DNA of 64,000 nucleotides from Patescibacteria group bacterium (GTDB lineage Bacteria; Patescibacteriota; Microgenomatia; CAYGWK01): the NCBI GenBank assembly GCA_049322615.1, contig JBMORX010000009.1, forward strand, positions 57,120 to 121,119, in the 5' to 3' direction. The notes beneath the pieces are model-generated. The model was not told the origin of the DNA and ran no database searches. It was given only the letters and a program-made list of their open reading frames with translations. The position numbers and the translations under genes are program-made. Shown piece by piece: positions 1,122 to 44,851 of this stretch. The number at the start of each line of letters is the position of its first letter. The stretch's first letter is position 1.

Positions 1122-3170
1122 TTAATTTGGTTCGATGGGTTTGAGGGTGAATCTTTTGAGTTTTTCTTGCAGAGCAGGGAACTGGTTTAATTTGTCGATA
1201 ACCGACTCGGCGGCTTGGCGGGTTTGCTTAATAAGCCCCAGGTCAGTAAACGAGGCGACTCTTAAATCGGGAAATCCGTGTTGGGCGGTGCCATAGATTT
1301 CTCCAGGACCGCGAAGTTTTAAATCGAGTTCTGCCAGCTCTGCCCCAATGTACATTTTTTCCATAGCTTTAAGACGCTGAATTGCCCTTCCTTCGGTCAC
1401 CTCGGTGAAAAGGAGACAGAAAGACTGTTTGACGCTCCGGCCTACCCTGCCCCGAAGTTGGTGAAGCTGAGCCAAACCAAATCTGTCCGCAGCCTCAATC
1501 ATCATAATCGTCGCCTGGGGAATATCGATTCCGACCTCAACCACCGGAGTTGAAACAAGAACATCAAGAGTGCCCTGGCGAAATCTGTCAATTACTTCAT
1601 CTTTTTCTTTGCTTTTTAGTCTACCGTGTAAAAGTCCAAGTTTAAGGTCCGGAAAGATTTTTTTTGAAAGATTCTCAAACTCTACCGTTGCCGCTTTAAT
1701 AGACTTTAATGTTTCGCTTTCCTCAATTAAAGGACAAATAATAAAAGCCTGCTCGCTTGTCCCTTTTACCCTTTGTCTGATCCAGTTGTAGGCAGGCTGC
1801 CTTTTTATTGGCGGCACGACCCAGGTTTTTATTCTTTGTCTTCCCGGAGGCATCTCATCAAGAACTGAAAGGTCTAAATCTCCATACAAGGTAAGAGCAA
1901 TAGTTCTCGGGATTGGGGTGGCGGTCATGGTTAAAATGTGAGGGCTGGAGCCTTTCTTGATTAGCTCTCCTCTCTGTTCTACTCCAAAGCGGTGTTGTTC
2001 ATCAATGATGACAAGCCCAAGATTTTCAAATTTAATCCCTTTTTGGATTAGGGCATGGGTGCCGATATAAACATTGGGTGGGAAGTGGGAAGTGGGAAGT
2101 GGGAAGTGTTTTTTGCTTCCAGTCAAGAGAGCGATCTTTATTCCAAAGGGAGAAAGAAGTTGGTTTAAGGTCTGGTAGTGCTGGTTTGCCAAAATTTCTG
2201 TTGGCGCCATCAGAACAGACCGGAAGCCATTAAGATAAGCAATGTAGACAGCAATAGCGGCAACCACGGTTTTTCCTGAGCCAACATCGCCTTCTAAAAG
2301 TCGATTCATGGGTTTATCAAAAGCTAGATTGGCGAGGATCTCCCGGAGAGAGCGTTTTTGAGCACCGGTTAATTCGAATGGAAGGCTGTGAATAAAATCT
2401 AAAACTTTTTCCTGATCAATAAAAAATTTATTGGAGAGGGTTTTCTTTTGCCAATCTTGTTTTCTCTTCAAGCCTGCCAGTTGGATTAAGAAAAGTTCGT
2501 CAAAGGCGAGACGATTCCTTGCCTGTTCTGCCTGGATTTTATTTTCAGGAAAGTGGATCCAGCGTAAAGCAGGTGGCAAATTGAGTAAATTATATGTTTG
2601 AGTAATCTCTTTCGGCAAAAAATCATTTATGGATGGTAATATCTGTTCGAGTAATGGAGCAATTCGGGAACGAAGCCATTTTGAGGAAACGCCATAAGTT
2701 TCTGGATATATTGGGACTAGTCGACCTGTGTGGATAGCTTTCTGTTGTCTGTCTTCTGTTATCTGTTTTCTGAGTAGTTCATACTCTGGGGAAACCATGA
2801 CAATATTTCTACCAAACCAGTCTACTTTACCCGAGAGATTATACCACTCCCCTACTTTGATAGTTTTAACTAAAAACGGCTGGTTAAACCAAACGATTTC
2901 AATTTTGTCTGTGCTGTCCGCTACTTCCGCTTTTTGAATTTTTTTGCCAGATCGGGTGTATTCGTTTTTAATTGAAAGAACCTGACCTTTAATGGTGAGC
3001 GTTTCTCCAGGCTGGACTCTTGAAATGTCGGAGACCAAAGAGAAATCTTCGTAGCGGTGAGGGAAATGATAAATTAAATCTTCAACCGTTTTTATGCCAA
3101 GCTTTGAAAGTCTTTTGGCAAAAATCGGTCCAACCATATAGAGTTTAGAAACTGGGGTAGATAAGTCCAT
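1122..3170 (-). CDS. recG: ATP-dependent DNA helicase RecG
   Basis: Walker A GDVGSGKT and DEQHRFG helicase motifs; 682 aa. Confidence 0.9.
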   Translation of the reverse strand: MDLSTPVSKLYMVGPIFAKRLSKLGIKTVEDLIYHFPHRYEDFSLVSDISRVQPGETLTIKGQVLSIKNEYTRSGKKIQKAEVADSTDKIEIVWFNQPFLVKTIKVGEWYNLSGKVDWFGRNIVMVSPEYELLRKQITEDRQQKAIHTGRLVPIYPETYGVSSKWLRSRIAPLLEQILPSINDFLPKEITQTYNLLNLPPALRWIHFPENKIQAEQARNRLAFDELFLIQLAGLKRKQDWQKKTLSNKFFIDQEKVLDFIHSLPFELTGAQKRSLREILANLAFDKPMNRLLEGDVGSGKTVVAAIAVYIAYLNGFRSVLMAPTEILANQHYQTLNQLLSPFGIKIALLTGSKKHFPLPTSHFPPNVYIGTHALIQKGIKFENLGLVIIDEQHRFGVEQRGELIKKGSSPHILTMTATPIPRTIALTLYGDLDLSVLDEMPPGRQRIKTWVVPPIKRQPAYNWIRQRVKGTSEQAFIICPLIEESETLKSIKAATVEFENLSKKIFPDLKLGLLHGRLKSKEKDEVIDRFRQGTLDVLVSTPVVEVGIDIPQATIMMIEAADRFGLAQLHQLRGRVGRSVKQSFCLLFTEVTEGRAIQRLKAMEKMYIGAELAELDLKLRGPGEIYGTAQHGFPDLRVASFTDLGLIKQTRQAAESVIDKLNQFPALQEKLKRFTLKPIEPN

Positions 3171-18421: not shown

Positions 18422-20158
18422 TTAAATCTTTTTTTCAATCTCCAAAGTAATTTTACCTAGGAATTTCTCCAGCATCATTTTCCCAAGATCTTTTTCGCCT
18501 CGAGCCCGAACAGAGATATTTTTCGCTTTCACCTCTTTTTCGCCAACAATTACCATGTACGGTACTTTTTGAAGCTCAGCATCACGAATTTTTGCCGAAG
18601 TTGTCTCATTTCGGTTATCCAACTCAACTCTTTCTCCAGCCTCCTTGAGTTTATCAGCAATTTCTTGTCCATATTTTATTTGTTTATCGGTAATGGGAAT
18701 AACCACCACTTGAACTGGTGCAAGCCAAATCGGAAAAGCCCCAGCGTAGTGCTCAATCAAAAGTCCCACCCATCTCTCTAGGGAACCAAGAGGAGCACGA
18801 TGAATTAAAACTGGTCTTTTAGTTTTACCGTCTTTATCAATATACTCAAGTTTAAATCTTTCTGGAAGCATAAAGTCAACCTGGATTGTTCCGCACTGCC
18901 ACTCCCGTCCCAAGACGTCTTTTATCATGACGTCAAGTTTTGGTCCATAGAAAGCGGCTTCGCCTTCTGCTTTTTTGGGTGTTAATCCGGCTTTCTTAAG
19001 CGCCTCTTCAATTTTTATCTCCGCCTCTTCCCAGGTTTTATCGTCTCCAAGGTATTTATCTTTATTTTTTGGGTCTCTGACGGAGAAGCGAAGATAAAAG
19101 TCTCCAATCCTGAATGCCTTAAGGAGAAACATGGTGTAATCAATTACGCCGATGAACTCCTCTACCACCTGGTCCTCCCGACAAAAGATATGGGAATCAT
19201 CTTGGGTAATGTAGCGAACCCTAATCATCCCTGATAATTCTCCAGTTTGTTCATAGCGGTAAACAGTGGCATTTTCGGCAATTCGCAATGGCAAATCCCG
19301 GTAGCTTCGAAGCTCGCTTTTATAAATCATCATATGCATTGGGCAGTTCATTGGTTTAATAAGATAATCTTCTTTATCAATCTTCATTGGTGAGTACATT
19401 TTGTCCTGGTATAAATCCCAATGACCTGAAGTAACCCAAAGAGATTTTCTCCCAATATGGGGAGAATAAACATGTTGGTATCCCCTTTTTGCCTGTTCAT
19501 CAACAATAAACTTTTCAATTTCTCGCCTGATGATTGCTCCCCTAGGAGTCCAAATTAAAAGACCAGGTCCGACCTCGTCGGGGATAATAAACAAGCCTAA
19601 TTCTTTACCTAGTTTTCGATGGTCCCTTTTTTTTGCTTCCTCAAGTTGCCAAAGATATTGGTCTAACTCTTTCTGGGTCTCAAAACAAGTCCCATAAATT
19701 CGGGTTAACATCTTATTTTTTTCCTCCCCTCGCCAGTAGGCGCCGGCCAAAGACAAAAGTTTAAGGGGGCCAATTTTTCCAGTGTTAGAAACATGAGGTC
19801 CAGCGCAAAGGTCGAGAAAATCACCAGTCTCATAGAGACTGACCTGTTTACTGTCTTCTTTTTCTAGTTCATTGATTAATTCCAGCTTATAAGGCTGATT
19901 CTTAAAAAGTTTTCTCGCTTCGGAAATCGAAATCATTCTCTTTTTGAATGGGACTCTTGATACAGCGATATGTACCATTGCATCAACGATTTTCTCTAAA
20001 TCTTTTTCCGTAATTGGTTTTTCAAAATCGAAATCATAGTAGAAACCATCCTCAATTGCCGGGCCAATGCCTAGTTTTGTCCCAGGATAAAGTTTAAGAA
20101 CCGCCGCCGCCAAAACATGGCTTGCCGAATGACGCATGGTTTCTAGGTTTTTATTCAT
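18422..20158 (-). CDS. thrS: threonine--tRNA ligase
   Basis: class II ThrRS blocks (RDHRKLGKELGLF, catalytic core, anticodon-binding domain). Start moved to ATG 20158 (MNKNLET), which leaves room for the leader. Confidence 0.88.
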   Translation of the reverse strand: MNKNLETMRHSASHVLAAAVLKLYPGTKLGIGPAIEDGFYYDFDFEKPITEKDLEKIVDAMVHIAVSRVPFKKRMISISEARKLFKNQPYKLELINELEKEDSKQVSLYETGDFLDLCAGPHVSNTGKIGPLKLLSLAGAYWRGEEKNKMLTRIYGTCFETQKELDQYLWQLEEAKKRDHRKLGKELGLFIIPDEVGPGLLIWTPRGAIIRREIEKFIVDEQAKRGYQHVYSPHIGRKSLWVTSGHWDLYQDKMYSPMKIDKEDYLIKPMNCPMHMMIYKSELRSYRDLPLRIAENATVYRYEQTGELSGMIRVRYITQDDSHIFCREDQVVEEFIGVIDYTMFLLKAFRIGDFYLRFSVRDPKNKDKYLGDDKTWEEAEIKIEEALKKAGLTPKKAEGEAAFYGPKLDVMIKDVLGREWQCGTIQVDFMLPERFKLEYIDKDGKTKRPVLIHRAPLGSLERWVGLLIEHYAGAFPIWLAPVQVVVIPITDKQIKYGQEIADKLKEAGERVELDNRNETTSAKIRDAELQKVPYMVIVGEKEVKAKNISVRARGEKDLGKMMLEKFLGKITLEIEKKI

Positions 20159-20335
20159 GGTTTGATTATAGCACCAATAACAATTAAAAAACCAACCTTT
20201 CGGCTGGTTGTCGATTAGTTTTAACCCCACTAACAAACCAGCCGTTTTAGACGCTGGTAGTTGTAGTTACAGTTAAAACCGCAATCATTATTTTGAATTA
20301 TACTAATAAAAATTTTATTGTCAAGTGGATGGCAT
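20159..20335 (-). promoter_or_regulatory. thrS promoter plus leader-peptide transcription attenuator
   Basis: minus strand: TTGACA, 16 nt, TATAAT. Hairpin ACCAGC/GCTGGT versus a perfect 8-bp alternative GGCTGGTT/AACCAGCC versus a terminator CAACC..GGTTG followed by TTTTTT. Confidence 0.7.
20247..20288 (-). CDS. Thr-rich leader peptide MIAVLTVTTTTSV
   Basis: 5 Thr codons among 13; the ORF ends inside the first attenuator hairpin. Confidence 0.6.
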   Translation of the reverse strand: MIAVLTVTTTTSV

Positions 20336-20379
20336 AGGACTCGAACCTATGACCTTTTCGATGTCAACGAAGCGCTCTT
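20326..20379 (-). pseudogene. tRNA 3' fragment (anticodon arm GAC, T arm, acceptor 3' strand plus CCA); 3' half of a tRNA split by an insertion
   Basis: T arm ATAGG-TTCGAGT-CCTAT, anticodon loop TTGACAT, no matching 5' acceptor strand adjacent. Confidence 0.6.
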
Positions 20380-20508
20380 CACCCGACTAACTTTTGCAGG
20401 TTGATTTTAGAAAGCCCAATTTAAACAAATAAAAATTTGTTGTTTTAGAGCTTCTTCTTAATTAACTCATTGGCAAAAGTTTGACGGGTAAACCAACTGA
20501 GCTCTTAG

Positions 20509-20582
20509 TGGGCGCATCAGGACTTGAACCTGAGACCTTTACTATGTCAAAGTAACGCTCTAGCCACCTGAGCTATGCGCCC
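20509..20582 (-). tRNA. tRNA-Val(GAC), no CCA encoded
   Basis: manual cloverleaf: acceptor GGGCGCA/TGCGCCC, anticodon loop TTGACAT, T loop TTCAAGT. Confidence 0.85.
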
Positions 20583-20826
20583 AGTAATTCTTTAAGACCT
20601 TTTTTAAATGAGTTCTCCCCCAGCCTGTTTTAAAATATTTTTCTCTGCTAGTTGCGTCTTGTTGATTTAAATACGCTTCGTAATAAATTAATCTAAATGG
20701 TTTTCTATATTTTGTTATTGCAACCTCACCAGAATTATGTTCTTCAAATCTTCGTTTTAGATTATCCGTATAACCTACGTACAATTTTCTATCTTTCAAA
20801 CTTTCTAGTACATAGACATGATACAT
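20560..20826 (-). CDS. GIY-YIG domain protein (small URI-type nuclease); its 3' end overlaps tRNA-Val
   Basis: YVYVLES...KLYVGYTDNLKRRFEEHN... GIY-YIG block; 88 aa. Confidence 0.8.
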   Translation of the reverse strand: MYHVYVLESLKDRKLYVGYTDNLKRRFEEHNSGEVAITKYRKPFRLIYYEAYLNQQDATSREKYFKTGWGRTHLKKVLKNYWAHSSGG

Positions 20827-20945
20827 AGACGCTCTTTACCCGTCAAACTTTCGCCCAATAATTAAGAAAGCCTTTATTAATAAATAAGTCTCATTTCTTA
20901 AGTTAGTATTTTAAAACAAACCGCGAAAGTTAGTCGGGTAAACCA

Positions 20946-20968
20946 ACTGAGCTATCCGCCCGTAGGCT
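20946..20968 (-). pseudogene. tRNA 5' fragment (acceptor plus D-arm 5' part) broken in the D-loop by the element TIR
   Basis: GGGCGGA-TA-GCTC-AGTTGGTT followed directly by TACCCGACTAACTTT. Confidence 0.55.
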
Positions 20969-21011
20969 TATTTTACAAGAAAGAAAAGGTGATTTCAATT
21001 GGAGAAAGCAT

Positions 21012-21584
21012 TTACCCCGCCTGGGTGGCCATGTAGCGTTCTTGGGAAAGCATGAATTTGGTGCCTGATTTTTGAACTTGAGCCCAATAGAAGGGTCTCT
21101 TTTTGGCCCGAGCATTCCAAGCCGCCAGCCAAACCGAAGCATCTTCAATTTTGCGAGTTAAAGATTTAATAAATGAAATTAATTTTTCAAAGAAAGTCTC
21201 ATGATAGACCCCAGGTTCAACTGGGGTTTGAACGGCGGCAATTTTAACTTCCTTGGCTAAATTTTGCGTTGCCGAGGCTAATTTTTTGACTTCTTCTTGA
21301 AGAGCGGCAACTTTGGTTTTGCTCTCTTGGTCTTTGGCAGAAAAAACGATTCTTTCTTGTTTCCTGACAATCTCTGCCTGGCAAAACCGCCGCTCAAATA
21401 TTTCTTGAAGCTCTGGTTTTTGGTTTTCCGGAAGGACTGTTTCAGATATTTTTCTTGGCCGAAGCCCAGTTTGGTCCTGAATGTCAGAACCAATGCCTCC
21501 TCCTAAATCACGCAAGGCTTCAAGGAGATCTCTTGGCAGGGTTTTTGATTTTGGCTTCTGTCCTTTTGGAGCCATTGGCAACAA
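21012..21584 (-). CDS. hypothetical protein
   Basis: ORF track; charged, helix-rich sequence. Confidence 0.45.
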   Translation of the reverse strand: MLPMAPKGQKPKSKTLPRDLLEALRDLGGGIGSDIQDQTGLRPRKISETVLPENQKPELQEIFERRFCQAEIVRKQERIVFSAKDQESKTKVAALQEEVKKLASATQNLAKEVKIAAVQTPVEPGVYHETFFEKLISFIKSLTRKIEDASVWLAAWNARAKKRPFYWAQVQKSGTKFMLSQERYMATQAG

Positions 21585-33471: not shown

Positions 33472-33497
33472 GCGTCCATAGCTCAATTGGATAGAGC
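33472..33497 (+). pseudogene. tRNA 5' fragment (acceptor plus complete D arm)
   Basis: GCGTCCA-TA-GCTC-AATTGGAT-AGAGC, then 4 nt, then the next tRNA. Confidence 0.5.
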
Positions 33498-33501
33498 CGA
33501 A

Positions 33502-33573
33502 GCCTCTGTAGCTTAACGGATAAAGCCCTGGTCTTCGGAACCAGTAATGGGGGTTCGATTCCCTCCAGAGGCA
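33502..33573 (+). tRNA. tRNA-Arg(TCG), no CCA
   Basis: acceptor GCCTCTG/CAGAGGC, anticodon loop CTTCGGA, T loop TTCGATT. Confidence 0.85.
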
Positions 33574-33605
33574 CTAGAAAATTTCTAAAAGAAATTTCAA
33601 GCGCA

Positions 33606-33878
33606 ATGCACCAAAAATATTATTTATATATTTTAAGAAGTAAGCTTGATAAAAATTTATATATTGGTGTCACTACAAACTTATATAAAAGAGTTCAAGA
33701 ACATAATTTTGGTAATCAGCAATCAACTAAAAATAGAGGAAATTTTGAATTGATTTATTATGAAGTATTTTTCAATAAATTAGATGTTTATTTGCGAGAA
33801 AAATATTTTAAAACTGGTTGGGGAAGAAAACATTTAAGACATGCCTTATCTAATACGCTAAGTACACTAAGAACATAG
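33606..33878 (+). CDS. GIY-YIG domain protein (small URI-type nuclease)
   Basis: YYLYILRS...NLYIGVTTNLYKRVQEHN; flanked by the near-palindromes CTAGAAAATTTCT (33578) and AAAAATTTCTAG (33912). Confidence 0.8.
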   Translation: MHQKYYLYILRSKLDKNLYIGVTTNLYKRVQEHNFGNQQSTKNRGNFELIYYEVFFNKLDVYLREKYFKTGWGRKHLRHALSNTLSTLRT

Positions 33879-33921
33879 AGTATAGGGCAGTGTCCTTGAA
33901 TTTTTCAAAGAAAAATTTCTA

Positions 33922-33994
33922 GGGCCACTAGCTCAACTGGTAGAGCAGCTCCCTCTTAAGGAGTAGGTTCGGAGTTCGAGTCTCCGGTGGCTCA
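33922..33994 (+). tRNA. tRNA-Lys(CTT), no CCA
   Basis: acceptor GGGCCAC/GTGGCTC, anticodon loop CTCTTAA, T loop TTCGAGT. Confidence 0.85.
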
Positions 33995-35292
33995 CCGATA
34001 CCAAAAACCAAGGATTCTTTGAAGCAAGCGGTTGAAAAATGAGGTTTTTTGATTAATTAATTTCCAGGTTTCAAAAACTTTAATCTTGCCTTCGGGTAGC
34101 CCTTCCCAAGAAAAATCAAAGTCTCCAGCAATGCTTGATGTTTCCAAAGTGTAATCAAATGTCCACGTTTCTCCTGGTTTAACTAGAACTCCTTCTGGCA
34201 GTTTCAAATCCGATAATTGCAAACCAGAGGTTTGAGATTTTAGTTTAAATTCTTTTTCTCCCCAAATAGACTGTCCAGTATTTTTTAAAGTAATTTTTCC
34301 CTGATATTGAAAATTTGTCGGTAAAAATGGAAGAAAGAAAAACTCAACAATTTCGTATCTTTCTTCCTGGGCTGGTTCACCTCTGACCTTGCTTAAATTT
34401 TTCACTGCCTCAAACTGCGGATAGGGATTCCCCTCTTTATCAAGCCAAGAAAAGTTTTCAAAAGGAGGAAAAGGATAATTTAAAATAAACGGAGTAACCG
34501 CTACCACCTTTTCATCTTTTAACCAAACATTTTCAAACGCTTGTTTGATAAATTGAGCTGTTACCTCTTTGTTATAAAATTTTTCATTTTTAATTTTTAA
34601 TTTTTCATTTTTGTACGGCCAGCCGGTTTCCGTGATAAAAACCGGTAGATTGAGTTTTAAAACCGAAAGCTCCCATTCATAACCTCTAATCGTGGCTCTT
34701 CCCTTTTGCCAGGGCTTACCGACAAAACCATGATTTGGATAAGAGTGAGAGACCCAACCATCAAGCCGCAAGAATATGCCTGGAACCTCAAAATTTACTT
34801 CTCTAAGAAATTTTGCCTCGTCCATAGTTGAATTTGAATTAGGGGCGGCTTGGTCGAAACCAGCGTTGAGGAGAAAAAAGTCTTCACTTTTTTGCTTAAA
34901 AATGGTAATGGCATTGTCTAAAATCTTGGCGTATTCTTTAGGATTTCTCTCGCTTCCCCATTCTTTGTCATGGTTTGGTTCATTAAAGACAATGAGGTAG
35001 CGATTCTTGACTGGCCAATTAAGACCGTCTAAAAAATTCGCCATTTGGATAATTGTCTCCTCCGTTGGTTTTTTCCAGACCCCTTTTCTTGGTTTCGGTC
35101 ATCTTCTTGAATAACCACGGTTACATATCCCCAATCACCGCTACTTGAATTTACCAGCTCTGCGGCCAGAGGAAGATCTTCTGCTTGAGTGATATGAATA
35201 CCAAATTTGTTGTTTGGGGAAGCCCAGGCTGGTTGAGCAAACCTGGAAAATGATAAAATTAGAAGAATAGTTAATAATTTTTTCATTCGCAA
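33992..35292 (-). pseudogene. secreted glycoside-hydrolase-like protein (GH5-like NEP motif) split into two ORFs by a frameshift at a homopolymer run
   Basis: signal peptide in ORF 35029..35292; VFNEPNH in ORF 33992..35044; frames differ by 1 nt around the A/T run at 35063-35068. Confidence 0.5.
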
Positions 35293-44767: not shown

Positions 44768-44851
44768 TGGCGGAATCGGTATACGCGCAACACTTAAAAT
44801 GTTGTGGGTGTAAAATCACCCATGAGGGTTCGAGTCCCTCCTGGCCCACCA
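44761..44851 (+). tRNA. tRNA-Leu(TAA) with encoded CCA
   Basis: acceptor GGGCTAG/CTGGCCC, anticodon loop CTTAAAA, long variable arm, T loop TTCGAGT. Confidence 0.8.

Follow-up and report, generated by a model that had tools for sequence, protein, structure and literature searches.

The genes for a DUF5660 protein and for thrS in the window, a 64,000-nt stretch of DNA from a Patescibacteria group bacterium (contig JBMORX010000009.1, positions 57,120 to 121,119), enclose a minus-strand locus at 20159-20998 that we read as the layered scar of a selfish, homing-type cassette. The cassette, made up of a nuclease gene and a tRNA gene, would have overwritten the resident tRNA-Val(GAC) gene, and we put the probability of this reading at roughly 0.55. 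The palindromic repeats found at the same place appear, judged by the contexts in which they recur, to be a separate mini-element that sits at D-loop position 20a/21 of disabled tRNA copies.

On the minus strand, the locus consists of a tRNA 5' fragment, a first mini-element copy (hairpin A), the motif AAGAGCG, an open reading frame (ORF) for a GIY-YIG nuclease that overlaps an intact tRNA-Val(GAC), a D-arm fragment, a second mini-element copy (hairpin B) and a tRNA 3' fragment, in this order (Table 1). An earlier note on this DNA, made from the sequence alone, had described a single tRNA gene split by a nested element with terminal inverted repeats (TIRs). Its inventory of fragments and repeats is real, including the further D-arm fragment beside the inner repeat (AGCTCAGTTGGTT at 20503-20491, a motif with three matches in the window versus 0.09 expected); its placement of the 5' fragment at 20968-20946 was about 7 nt off, the correct position being 20961-20941. 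The arm motif of the repeats, searched exactly or with one mismatch, occurs four times in the 64 kb, each time at this locus.

The sequence is metagenome-derived and repeats can mis-assemble, so that an assembly artefact or chance tRNA-like debris in a metagenome-assembled genome (MAG) had to be considered. This can practically be dismissed, as the identical 1.7-kb arrangement was present in an independent Logan assembly contig (L001; L numbers label the contigs and loci retrieved for comparison), the same architecture recurs in independent MAGs and metagenomes, which number in the dozens and stem from different studies, and the motifs lie far above chance.

The resident tRNA-Val(GAC) site

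Relatives were searched for with the upstream DUF5660 protein, and the contigs of the closest homologues were fetched. At the orthologous site of L055, L059 and L056, whose DUF5660 proteins share 81%, 75% and 73% amino acid identity with that of the window, the nuclease gene is absent and a plain tRNA-Val(GAC) is found, 8-13 nt after which thrS starts, amounting to a presence/absence polymorphism; in L055 and L059, the gene order was seen to be trigger factor, DUF5660, one plain tRNA-Val(GAC) and thrS. Since a plain gene occupies the same place in three relatives, the window arrangement is an invasion of a resident tRNA-Val(GAC) site. The earlier claim that a resident tRNA-Val(GAC) is disrupted is thereby borne out, with the uninterrupted tRNAs of L055, L059 and L056 representing empty sites.

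The 5' fragment GGGCGGATAGCTCAGTTGGTT was compared with the intact tRNA at the same genomic place, revealing its first 20 nt to be identical in L059 and 19 of 20 to be identical in L055, and the flank 5' of the fragment (window 21010-20962) to be almost the same as the flank of the uninterrupted tRNA in L055. This identifies the fragment as the 5' end of the resident gene itself. L056 has another tRNA-Val(GAC) allele (GGATGGC...GCCATCC) at the same place, and it is this allele that the 3' fragment of the window follows by sequence reading, with 53 of 54 nt identical, while being very unlike the L055 type. At the same locus, the L055 and L056 alleles are identical at 56 of 76 positions.

The acceptor strands of the 5' and 3' fragments pair at 5 of 7 positions, and one mismatch is present in the anticodon stem, too. 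With a 5' fragment of the L055/L059 type and a 3' fragment of the L056 type, the two are not halves of one gene, contrary to what had been proposed. Neither does the 3' fragment end in an encoded CCA, the letters in question being C71, C72 and the discriminator A73. Scoring with the Rfam tRNA covariance model gave a clear result for the intact tRNA (66.8 bits), whereas the 3' fragment remained at 24.9 bits, below the gathering score of 29. As the resident 3' part is gone and approximately 165 extra nt precede thrS, the locus reflects replacement and layering and not a clean insertion. This extra segment (20159-20324), for which no Rfam family match was obtained, was probably brought in by the invading DNA or left by a previous rearrangement; as a leader of thrS, it could be an attenuator.

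Recurrence of the ORF-tRNA module

The ORF and its tRNA form a recurrent module in Patescibacteria, chiefly in Microgenomates-group MAGs. At least 438 homologues of the protein were found, mostly in this group, and a sample of 53 genome loci and 80 metagenome loci yielded 68 distinct homologous ORFs. A tRNA on the same strand lies directly 3' (-40 to +120 nt) of 49 of these 68 ORFs, specifying Val in 32 cases (CAC 15, GAC 14, TAC 3), Ile in 6, Lys in 4, Asp in 3, Thr in 2 and Glu and Phe in 1 each. Upstream of the start codon of 33 of the 68 ORFs lies a hairpin whose end is 10-30 nt away (median 15).

The usual layout runs from tRNA positions 1-20a through a hairpin and AAGAGCG with at most about 15 nt of anticodon arm to the ORF and the intact tRNA; the AAGAGCG of the window is thus met again 5' of the ORF, followed by 0-15 nt of anticodon arm, in most related loci. 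This layout often continues with a 5'-truncated, hairpin-bearing copy and the rest of a tRNA, and such a truncated copy directly after the cassette tRNA was observed in L003, L009, L011, L017, L019, L025, L026, L031, L032 and L033 as well as in the window. ORF and tRNA are fused in a fixed register: the conserved C-terminal Trp codon TGG doubles as the source of tRNA residues G1 and G2, and the D arm contains the stop codon. Several homologues have the C-terminus W(A/N/T)(H/R/S)SS(A/V/G)G, i.e., a translated tRNA 5' end, and in the window, the last 7 codons and the TAG stop of the ORF are located inside tRNA-Val(GAC).

The cassette tRNA of the window is identical at 72 of 75 positions to that of L002, whose ORF is 80% identical, and at 67 of 75 positions to that of L005, compared with only 58 of 76 for the resident allele of the closest relative, L055. 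The resident 5' fragments of these loci begin differently, with GGGCGGA in the window, GGACTCG in L002 and GGGCGGT in L005. Nearly the same cassette tRNA behind related ORFs, combined with different 5' fragments, implies that ORF and tRNA move together. In L012, L013, L014, L017, L021 and L022, the intact tRNA shares its 5' strand with the resident fragment, so that only the ORF side is new there. Chimeric copies were also encountered, namely in the T arm of L026 and in L002, where the 5' fragment joins resident-type positions 1-20 to cassette-type positions 21-38. Donor-type and resident-strand outcomes are both as variable co-conversion in break repair would give.

In the loci examined, the anticodon of the interrupted tRNA and that of the incoming tRNA were always the same, which fits survival only where the lost function is replaced. 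The observation that the interrupted gene and the intact tRNA carried beside the GIY-YIG gene share the anticodon GAC is thus upheld, and the logic of disrupting a gene and supplying a working copy, suggested for this one locus, recurs in many.

The GIY-YIG protein

The protein encoded by the ORF was assigned to the GIY-YIG superfamily based on its match to Pfam PF01541, with a score of 57.4 bits versus a cut-off of 22.6. An alignment of 31 homologous sequences contained 17 invariant columns, and residues Y16, G18, R26, H30 and E62 were invariant throughout. The ratio of nonsynonymous to synonymous substitution rates (dN/dS) was between 0.03 and 0.28 where computable, revealing purifying selection on the ORF; dS was saturated for most ORF pairs, and the ratio refers to about a third of the comparisons.

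An AlphaFold (AF2) model with a predicted local distance difference test (pLDDT) value of 93 showed the GIY-YIG fold, with strands at residues 2-9, 15-20 and 44-52 plus helices, and the top Foldseek matches were GIY-YIG structures only. The nearest relatives of the protein are two UPF0213 proteins, BH0048 and EF2693, together with the Slx1 nuclease domain, with matches to 1zg2 (E = 5.5e-7) and 1ywl (E = 1.4e-5); Foldseek TMq values were 0.61-0.70 for Slx1 and, weaker, 0.50 for the catalytic domain of I-TevI. Searching PHROGs revealed no family at E ≤ 0.001 for either of the two GIY-YIG proteins of the window, and the only NCBIfam match was a sub-threshold one to a group-I-intron endonuclease. 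Given its nearest relatives in UPF0213 and Slx1 and the lack of a PHROGs family, the protein does not belong to the seg endonucleases of phages. It is a minimal UPF0213/Slx1-like GIY-YIG domain and falls in a branch of which the characterised members cut branched DNA.

The palindromic mini-element

Each of the two hairpins at the locus is a complete unit, and the 15-nt repeats are its arms. Across all loci surveyed, each hairpin proved to be a self-contained unit of 33-110 nt with the ends TTTACCCG...CGGGTGAA and a variable loop, and 143 distinct copies were found, most of them without a nearby ORF; at more than 100 places other than this locus, the palindrome stands by itself, in many cases with neither an ORF nor a tRNA close by, which substantiates the conservation of the repeats at other sites. 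The DNA fold of hairpin A was calculated at -21.6 kcal/mol, with z = -6.25 against shuffles. The core stem ACCCG/CGGGT is interrupted after 5 bp, or after 8 bp if the TTT/GAA extension is included, by a conserved 2x2 mismatch. Within the GAAC/GTTC/GCGC family of arms, the three perfectly pairing combinations were never seen among the surveyed hairpins; a few perfectly paired stems with other tetranucleotides exist. The commonest flank, TTT/GAA, accounts for 69 of the 143 copies, and a 2-nt direct repeat, which could indicate a target duplication, was present at only 11 of them and was not consistent. Screening viral contigs with the hairpin core pattern gave 0 matches.

An unbiased sample was obtained by scanning metagenome contigs with the hairpin core alone, which returned 88 hairpins. 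About a quarter to a third of these lie in tRNA loops, and for 23 of the 88, the GIY-YIG ORF is located within 300 nt. Additional contexts of the mini-element are the glmS ribozyme, the cobalamin riboswitch, a helix tip near the 3' end of 23S rRNA and a position 75-110 nt upstream of 23S. The insert occupies a terminal loop in glmS and 23S and a large variable region in the cobalamin riboswitch; the glmS stretch that contains it is 85 nt long, compared with 10 nt in the model, and the 23S helix tip measures 38 nt instead of the 4 nt of the model. Examples outside tRNA contexts among L061-L140 are L073 7557-7590, L112 184-216, L124 1361-1393 and L072 7350-7385. An RNase P RNA context, considered for some hairpins, was discarded, with Rfam showing cobalamin riboswitches and glmS instead. 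For the double-hairpin locus of L114, which resembles the cobalamin-riboswitch context, no Rfam match was obtained at the gathering score; mini-element inserts may push covariance-model matches below threshold.

The nested element proposed earlier would be a cut-and-paste transposon with 15-nt TIRs, inserted twice in the D loop of one tRNA-Val and carrying the nuclease and a spare tRNA as cargo. The pairs in question indeed complement each other well, the outer one over 30 nt (83%) and the inner one over 36 nt (81%), and at two mismatched positions they do so better than the local hairpins; L130 and L103 show, furthermore, that tRNA cargo between inverted repeats does occur in this system. Against this, the arm combination of hairpin B (GTCAAAC / GTTAGTC, with two mismatches) is found in stand-alone hairpins of L012, L016, L021 and L010 and, in the reverse orientation seen in hairpin A, in L017 and L026, and hairpin A can be aligned from end to end with B in reverse complement, which fits better than B itself. 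As the two hairpins are inverted copies of one imperfect palindrome, the 'outer' and 'inner' pairs are a by-product and not the ends of nested transposons. Related loci have two hairpins in direct orientation (L003, L026, L031) or only one, the tRNA fragments on either side in the window stem from different alleles and the resident gene has lost its 3' part. The mini-element does have conserved ends, but with the 2-nt duplication at 11 of 143 copies and no transposase, it does not qualify as a TIR element or a miniature inverted-repeat transposable element (MITE); in the 640-bp region, the 88-aa nuclease is the only ORF, and neither a transposase nor an integrase was found. We consider the transposon highly improbable. 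A tRNA-integrating genomic island was likewise rejected, there being no integrase and the duplicated part being the 5' and not the 3' end of the tRNA.

According to another explanation, the hairpins are intervening sequences (IVSs) that are tolerated or excised at the RNA level, for instance by RNase III, so that the outer tRNAs would be functional and the ORF and inner tRNA would lie in an intron-like insert. The position of the hairpin at terminal loops of presumably functional RNAs (glmS and 23S), where it resembles RNase III-type IVSs in sitting at helix tips, and its occurrence in the cobalamin riboswitch are in line with this. So are the perfect stems of the outer tRNAs in L130, L103 and L003 (7 of 7 acceptor pairs), the calling of all reconstructed outer tRNAs as tRNA-Val by ARAGORN, and an orientation bias in D loops, where the sense strand has T.G rather than C.A at the base (about 32 versus 5 in a hand tally). 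Short uncharacterised inserts and RNase III-type IVSs have, moreover, already been suspected in the rRNA of these bacteria (PMC11270868).

For the window, an IVS conflicts with the fragments belonging to different alleles and with their mismatches, of which 2 fall among the 7 acceptor pairs and one in the anticodon stem. Many hairpin-bearing copies elsewhere are 5'-truncated or decayed (L011, L025, L032, L140), and, decayed pseudogenes such as L140 excepted, those examined have an intact tRNA of identical anticodon as their neighbour where this could be checked. A helix at 20a/21 would, in addition, disturb the elbow formed by D loop and T loop. No group I intron signal was detected: Rfam at E ≤ 10 over 19900-21400 returned tRNA only, with neither Intron_gpI nor any known motif for the hairpin, Intron_gpI had no match in the whole window at the gathering threshold, and a group I intron in the tRNA gene was rejected for want of a ribozyme core by covariance model. 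The archaeal bulge-helix-bulge geometry is absent, too, as by sequence reading, the junctions are found at the foot of a helix of 8 bp, beyond which a symmetric 2x2 internal loop follows. To our knowledge, bacteria have no tRNA-splicing endonuclease. On balance, RNA-level removal or tolerance is an unlikely account of the locus.

The mini-element was also considered as part of a system akin to repetitive extragenic palindromic (REP) sequences and REP-associated tyrosine transposases (RAYTs), in which the Slx1-like nuclease would cut stem-loops or cruciforms extruded from loop-coding DNA and thereby disperse the palindromes, with the ORF-tRNA unit being the 'home' of the nuclease. The nearest folds, Slx1 and UPF0213, are those of branched-DNA nucleases, and the protein has no sequence-specific binding domain. 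Hairpins, ORF starts and inner tRNAs are all found at loop-coding positions (D, anticodon and T loops; helix tips of glmS and 23S), the window ORF lies between two inverted copies, as do RAYT genes between REPs, and the 2x2 mismatch in the core stem is conserved. In the unbiased hairpin sample, however, 0 of about 55 non-tRNA hairpins had a GIY-YIG ORF within 300 nt, and the HNH module of the window (see below) has the same tRNA architecture without hairpins. We also know of no GIY-YIG enzyme that acts as a transposase. A dispersal system of this kind is therefore improbable in our estimation.

Several further observations concern the mini-element and related inserts. In L056 (2841-2915), the intact tRNA-Val(GAC) has an unusual D loop, AGAGGAAGAGC, which keeps the 'GAAGAGC' that is normally found 3' of the hairpin; judged by these letters, the loop may be what a lost hairpin left behind. 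A second palindrome type, CCTGCCTGCC/GGCAGGCAGG, was seen in the anticodon loops of disabled tRNA-Val copies (L140 224-243, L130, L027); the L140 copy is empty, and in L130, arms of a similar kind lie on either side of the inner tRNA. Hairpin-type inserts are also present in the T loop and D stem of disabled tRNA copies, e.g., GGTT[TCCCGCTTAAGCGGGA...]CAAATCC (L011 ~2990-3060, L005 ~1535-1551, L002 ~2848-2920, L012 2395-2433, L016 2392-2425). Finally, L130 (5037-5250) and L103 (4335-4635) have a 'tRNA inside tRNA' organisation, where an outer tRNA-Val in pristine condition, with 7 of 7 acceptor pairs formed and a hairpin in its D loop, contains, in its anticodon loop, a complete tRNA-Val of another allele with the same anticodon between short inverted repeats; in L130, no ORF lies between outer and inner tRNA. 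In the literature searched, neither the mini-element family nor a cellular minimal-nuclease module was found described. Novelty is most likely for the hairpin family and for L130 and L103 with their 'tRNA inside tRNA' organisation.

Other nuclease-tRNA sites in the window

An HNH endonuclease ORF that is unrelated to the GIY-YIG ORF shows the same succession of 5' fragment, ORF and intact tRNA and has no ACCCG hairpin, which supports the homing-type reading of the tRNA-Val locus. This module (44171-44851) comprises, 5' of the ORF, a tRNA 3' fragment (44171-44218) followed by a tRNA-Leu 5' fragment of another allele (44219-44242).

The second GIY-YIG ORF of the window is located between tRNA-Arg(TCG) and tRNA-Lys(CTT) (33473-33996), as in L009. 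The tRNA 5' fragment GCGTCCATAGCTCAATTGGATAGAGCCGAA directly precedes tRNA-Arg(TCG), and small AAATTTC-type hairpins were noted on both sides of the ORF (~33583-33599 and ~33909-33930). On the plus strand at 43662-43827, tRNA-Leu(GAG) and tRNA-Val(TAC) are separated by 4 nt. A GIY-YIG cassette occupies the same tRNA cluster position in L031 and lies directly upstream of Val(TAC) in L016, so that the window shows the empty state of this site.

Table 1. Positions in the window of the parts of the tRNA-Val(GAC) locus and of the two further nuclease ORFs.
Feature	Position	Strand	Evidence or remark
Promoter-like site TTGAAA-17-TAAAAT	20970..20998	-	upstream of resident tRNA 5' fragment
Resident tRNA-Val(GAC) 5' fragment GGGCGGATAGCTCAGTTGGTT, positions 1 to ~20a	20941..20961	-	sequence reading
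Hairpin A, palindromic mini-element copy	20835..20942; 102-nt core ACCCG...CGGGT 20939-20838	-	inserted at D-loop 20a/21
Hairpin A arm TACCCGACTAACTTT	20940-20926	-	motif scan
Hairpin A arm AAAGTTTGACGGGTA	20851-20837	-	motif scan
AAGAGCG, remnant of D-stem 3' side, between hairpin A and ORF start	20830..20836	-	sequence reading
GIY-YIG nuclease ORF, 88 aa	20560..20826	-	Pfam PF01541, E=1.9e-15
Intact cassette tRNA-Val(GAC), working copy	20508..20582	-	ARAGORN; Rfam 66.8 bits
5'-truncated D-arm fragment AGCTCAGTTGGTT, upstream of hairpin B	20491..20503	-	motif scan
Hairpin B, second mini-element copy, inverted relative to A	20378..20492; 109-nt core 20489-20381	-	fold z = -3.0 vs shuffles
Hairpin B arm TACCCGTCAAACTTT	20490-20476	-	motif scan
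Hairpin B arm AAAGTTAGTCGGGTG	20394-20380	-	motif scan
tRNA-Val(GAC) 3' fragment, D-stem 3' side to discriminator, GGATGGC/GCCATCC type, slightly decayed	20326..20379	-	Rfam 24.9 bits
Extra ~165-nt segment 5' of thrS, absent from relatives	20159..20324	-	perfect TTGACA-16-TATAAT promoter (12/12 sigma-70 consensus) and terminator-like hairpin
Second GIY-YIG ORF, 90 aa, 53% identical to the first	33606-33878	+	PF01541, E=1.8e-15
HNH endonuclease ORF, 158 aa, end overlaps intact tRNA-Leu(TAA)	44291-44767	+	PF01844, E=4e-7

Proposed mechanism

In the mechanism that we propose for the cassette, the nuclease would cut tRNA-Val genes in or near a loop-coding stretch, i.e., the D loop or the anticodon loop. 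Repair would then copy a cassette-bearing donor, with the universally conserved tRNA segments serving as homology arms, and give a product of the form [resident 5' fragment]-[ORF]-[intact tRNA], in which the donor-type share of the intact tRNA would vary by locus. The ORF would be transcribed from the tRNA promoter, and RNase P would free the tRNA. With a tRNA of the same anticodon supplied, loss of the resident copy would be survivable and the cassette would from then on be indispensable. Repeated rounds would result in stacked fragments of different alleles, as are present in the window.

Concerning transcription in the window, the promoter-like site at 20998-20970 probably drives the 5' fragment, the ORF and the intact tRNA as a single transcript. 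A promoter of the ORF itself with the 3' arm of the hairpin as -35 box (TTGACG-17-TATCAT, 20846-20818) was rejected, since its -10 box runs into the start codon and other loci do not generally show the pattern; reading AAGAG as a Shine-Dalgarno sequence was rejected as weak and unsupported.

Several points weigh against the homing-type cassette. With its 88 aa, the protein corresponds to a catalytic domain only and differs from characterised homing endonucleases in that no DNA-binding domain can be recognised. The intact cassette tRNA has ordinary D and anticodon arms, which leaves its escape from re-cutting unexplained. Simple homing does not explain why the hairpin is near-constant at exactly 20a/21 of the 5' fragment, and the inverted hairpins of the window as compared to the direct ones of L003, L026 and L031 are unexplained as well. 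The relatives with empty sites share 70-80% nucleotide identity with the window, and a comparison of DUF5660 and thrS with those of L055, L056 and L059 gave about 60-80% identity; at this level, co-conversion tracts are unmappable and no recent donor was identified. Lastly, the material is metagenome-assembled throughout, consisting of MAGs and metagenome contigs.

The mechanism can be extended to a natural 'cleave-and-rescue' system, in which a structure-specific GIY-YIG enzyme would attack loop-coding parts of essential structured-RNA genes, TTTACCCG...CGGGTGAA palindromes would be planted at the breaks and the nuclease gene would be retained by means of the same-anticodon tRNA. We advance this extension tentatively and regard it as doubtful.

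Relation to known systems

The functionally closest known system is SegB of the phages T4 and T6, to which the cassette, which is cellular, is unrelated by sequence. SegB is a free-standing GIY-YIG homing endonuclease encoded in a tRNA gene cluster that recognises a conserved tRNA T-arm motif and drives the inheritance of itself and of neighbouring tRNA genes as well as segmental amplification (PMC2330249, PMC13096335). The statement of the earlier note that the element does not belong to a described class was therefore too strong, given that SegB is known to target tRNA genes and to drag them along (PMC2330249, PMC13096335). Both systems place a GIY-YIG gene among tRNA genes, and the cassette would, as SegB does, recognise a motif conserved in tRNA genes, carry tRNA genes along and give rise to segmental duplications of tRNA regions. 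They differ in that SegB belongs to phages, whereas the cassette encodes an 88-aa catalytic domain in a cellular genome, with no PHROGs match and with UPF0213/Slx1 as its nearest relatives. SegB is about 2.5 times longer than this protein and has DNA-binding parts. A further difference is that the cassette ORF is fused to one tRNA and is situated inside a disrupted copy of the same isoacceptor, with palindromes at the junctions.

In Allomyces mitochondria, Paquin, Laforest and Lang (1994 and 2000) reportedly described a mobile GIY-YIG ORF in atp6 that brings a replacement 3' gene segment, as well as double-hairpin elements. As in the cassette, the ORF travels with a piece of the target gene, the displaced part is left as a pseudogene and small mobile hairpins co-exist. 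There, the terminal segment of an organellar protein gene is replaced, whereas the cassette involves a whole tRNA gene and a bacterial host.

Group I introns with homing endonucleases occur in tRNA and rRNA genes of Patescibacteria (PMC13011429, PMC11270868), and Tsurumaki et al. found many short uncharacterised rRNA inserts along with GIY-YIG ORFs whose host inserts belong to neither the group I nor the group II introns (PMC11270868). These introns and the cassette share the host organisms and the invasion of tRNA and rRNA genes at loop positions. The cassette is set apart by having no ribozyme, and rescue would come from a second gene copy instead of splicing.

The mini-element itself invites comparison with other short palindromes. 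REP/RAYT systems and MITEs such as Correia consist of short dispersed palindromes, and RAYT genes are flanked by REPs. The imperfect palindromes, conserved ends and mismatches, high copy number and location of a nuclease gene between inverted copies are features in common. Unlike these systems, the mini-element has no HUH/Y1 transposase and no consistent duplication, and it is found inside structured-RNA genes and not between genes; its link to the GIY-YIG gene is hypothetical.

The synthetic 'Cleave and Rescue' (ClvR) system is an engineered, Cas9-based gene drive in diploid animals. It resembles the cassette in coupling a nuclease that destroys an essential gene with a functional version of the gene destroyed, by which carriers are favoured and the element is not lost. 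For the cassette, cleavage of the resident gene is putative, and resistance of the rescue copy to cutting is not evident.

Implications

For genome annotation, it is relevant that tRNA finders miss tRNA copies containing the mini-element and that riboswitch and rRNA models are split by it. The mini-element is, moreover, a testable substrate for the many uncharacterised GIY-YIG proteins of the UPF0213/YhbQ type.

If the cleave-and-rescue extension were true, the palindromes would constitute a new class of bacterial intervening elements in glmS, riboswitches, rRNA and possibly tRNA, and this class would be tolerated or removed at the RNA level. If true, our interpretation would further mean that essential tRNA genes of bacteria with reduced genomes are serially replaced by foreign alleles via a unit of about 340 bp, which would explain the divergent tRNA-Val alleles at one conserved locus between close relatives such as L055 and L056. 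The cassette would then be a cellular counterpart of phage SegB and a natural element that is made indispensable by destroying and replacing an essential gene.

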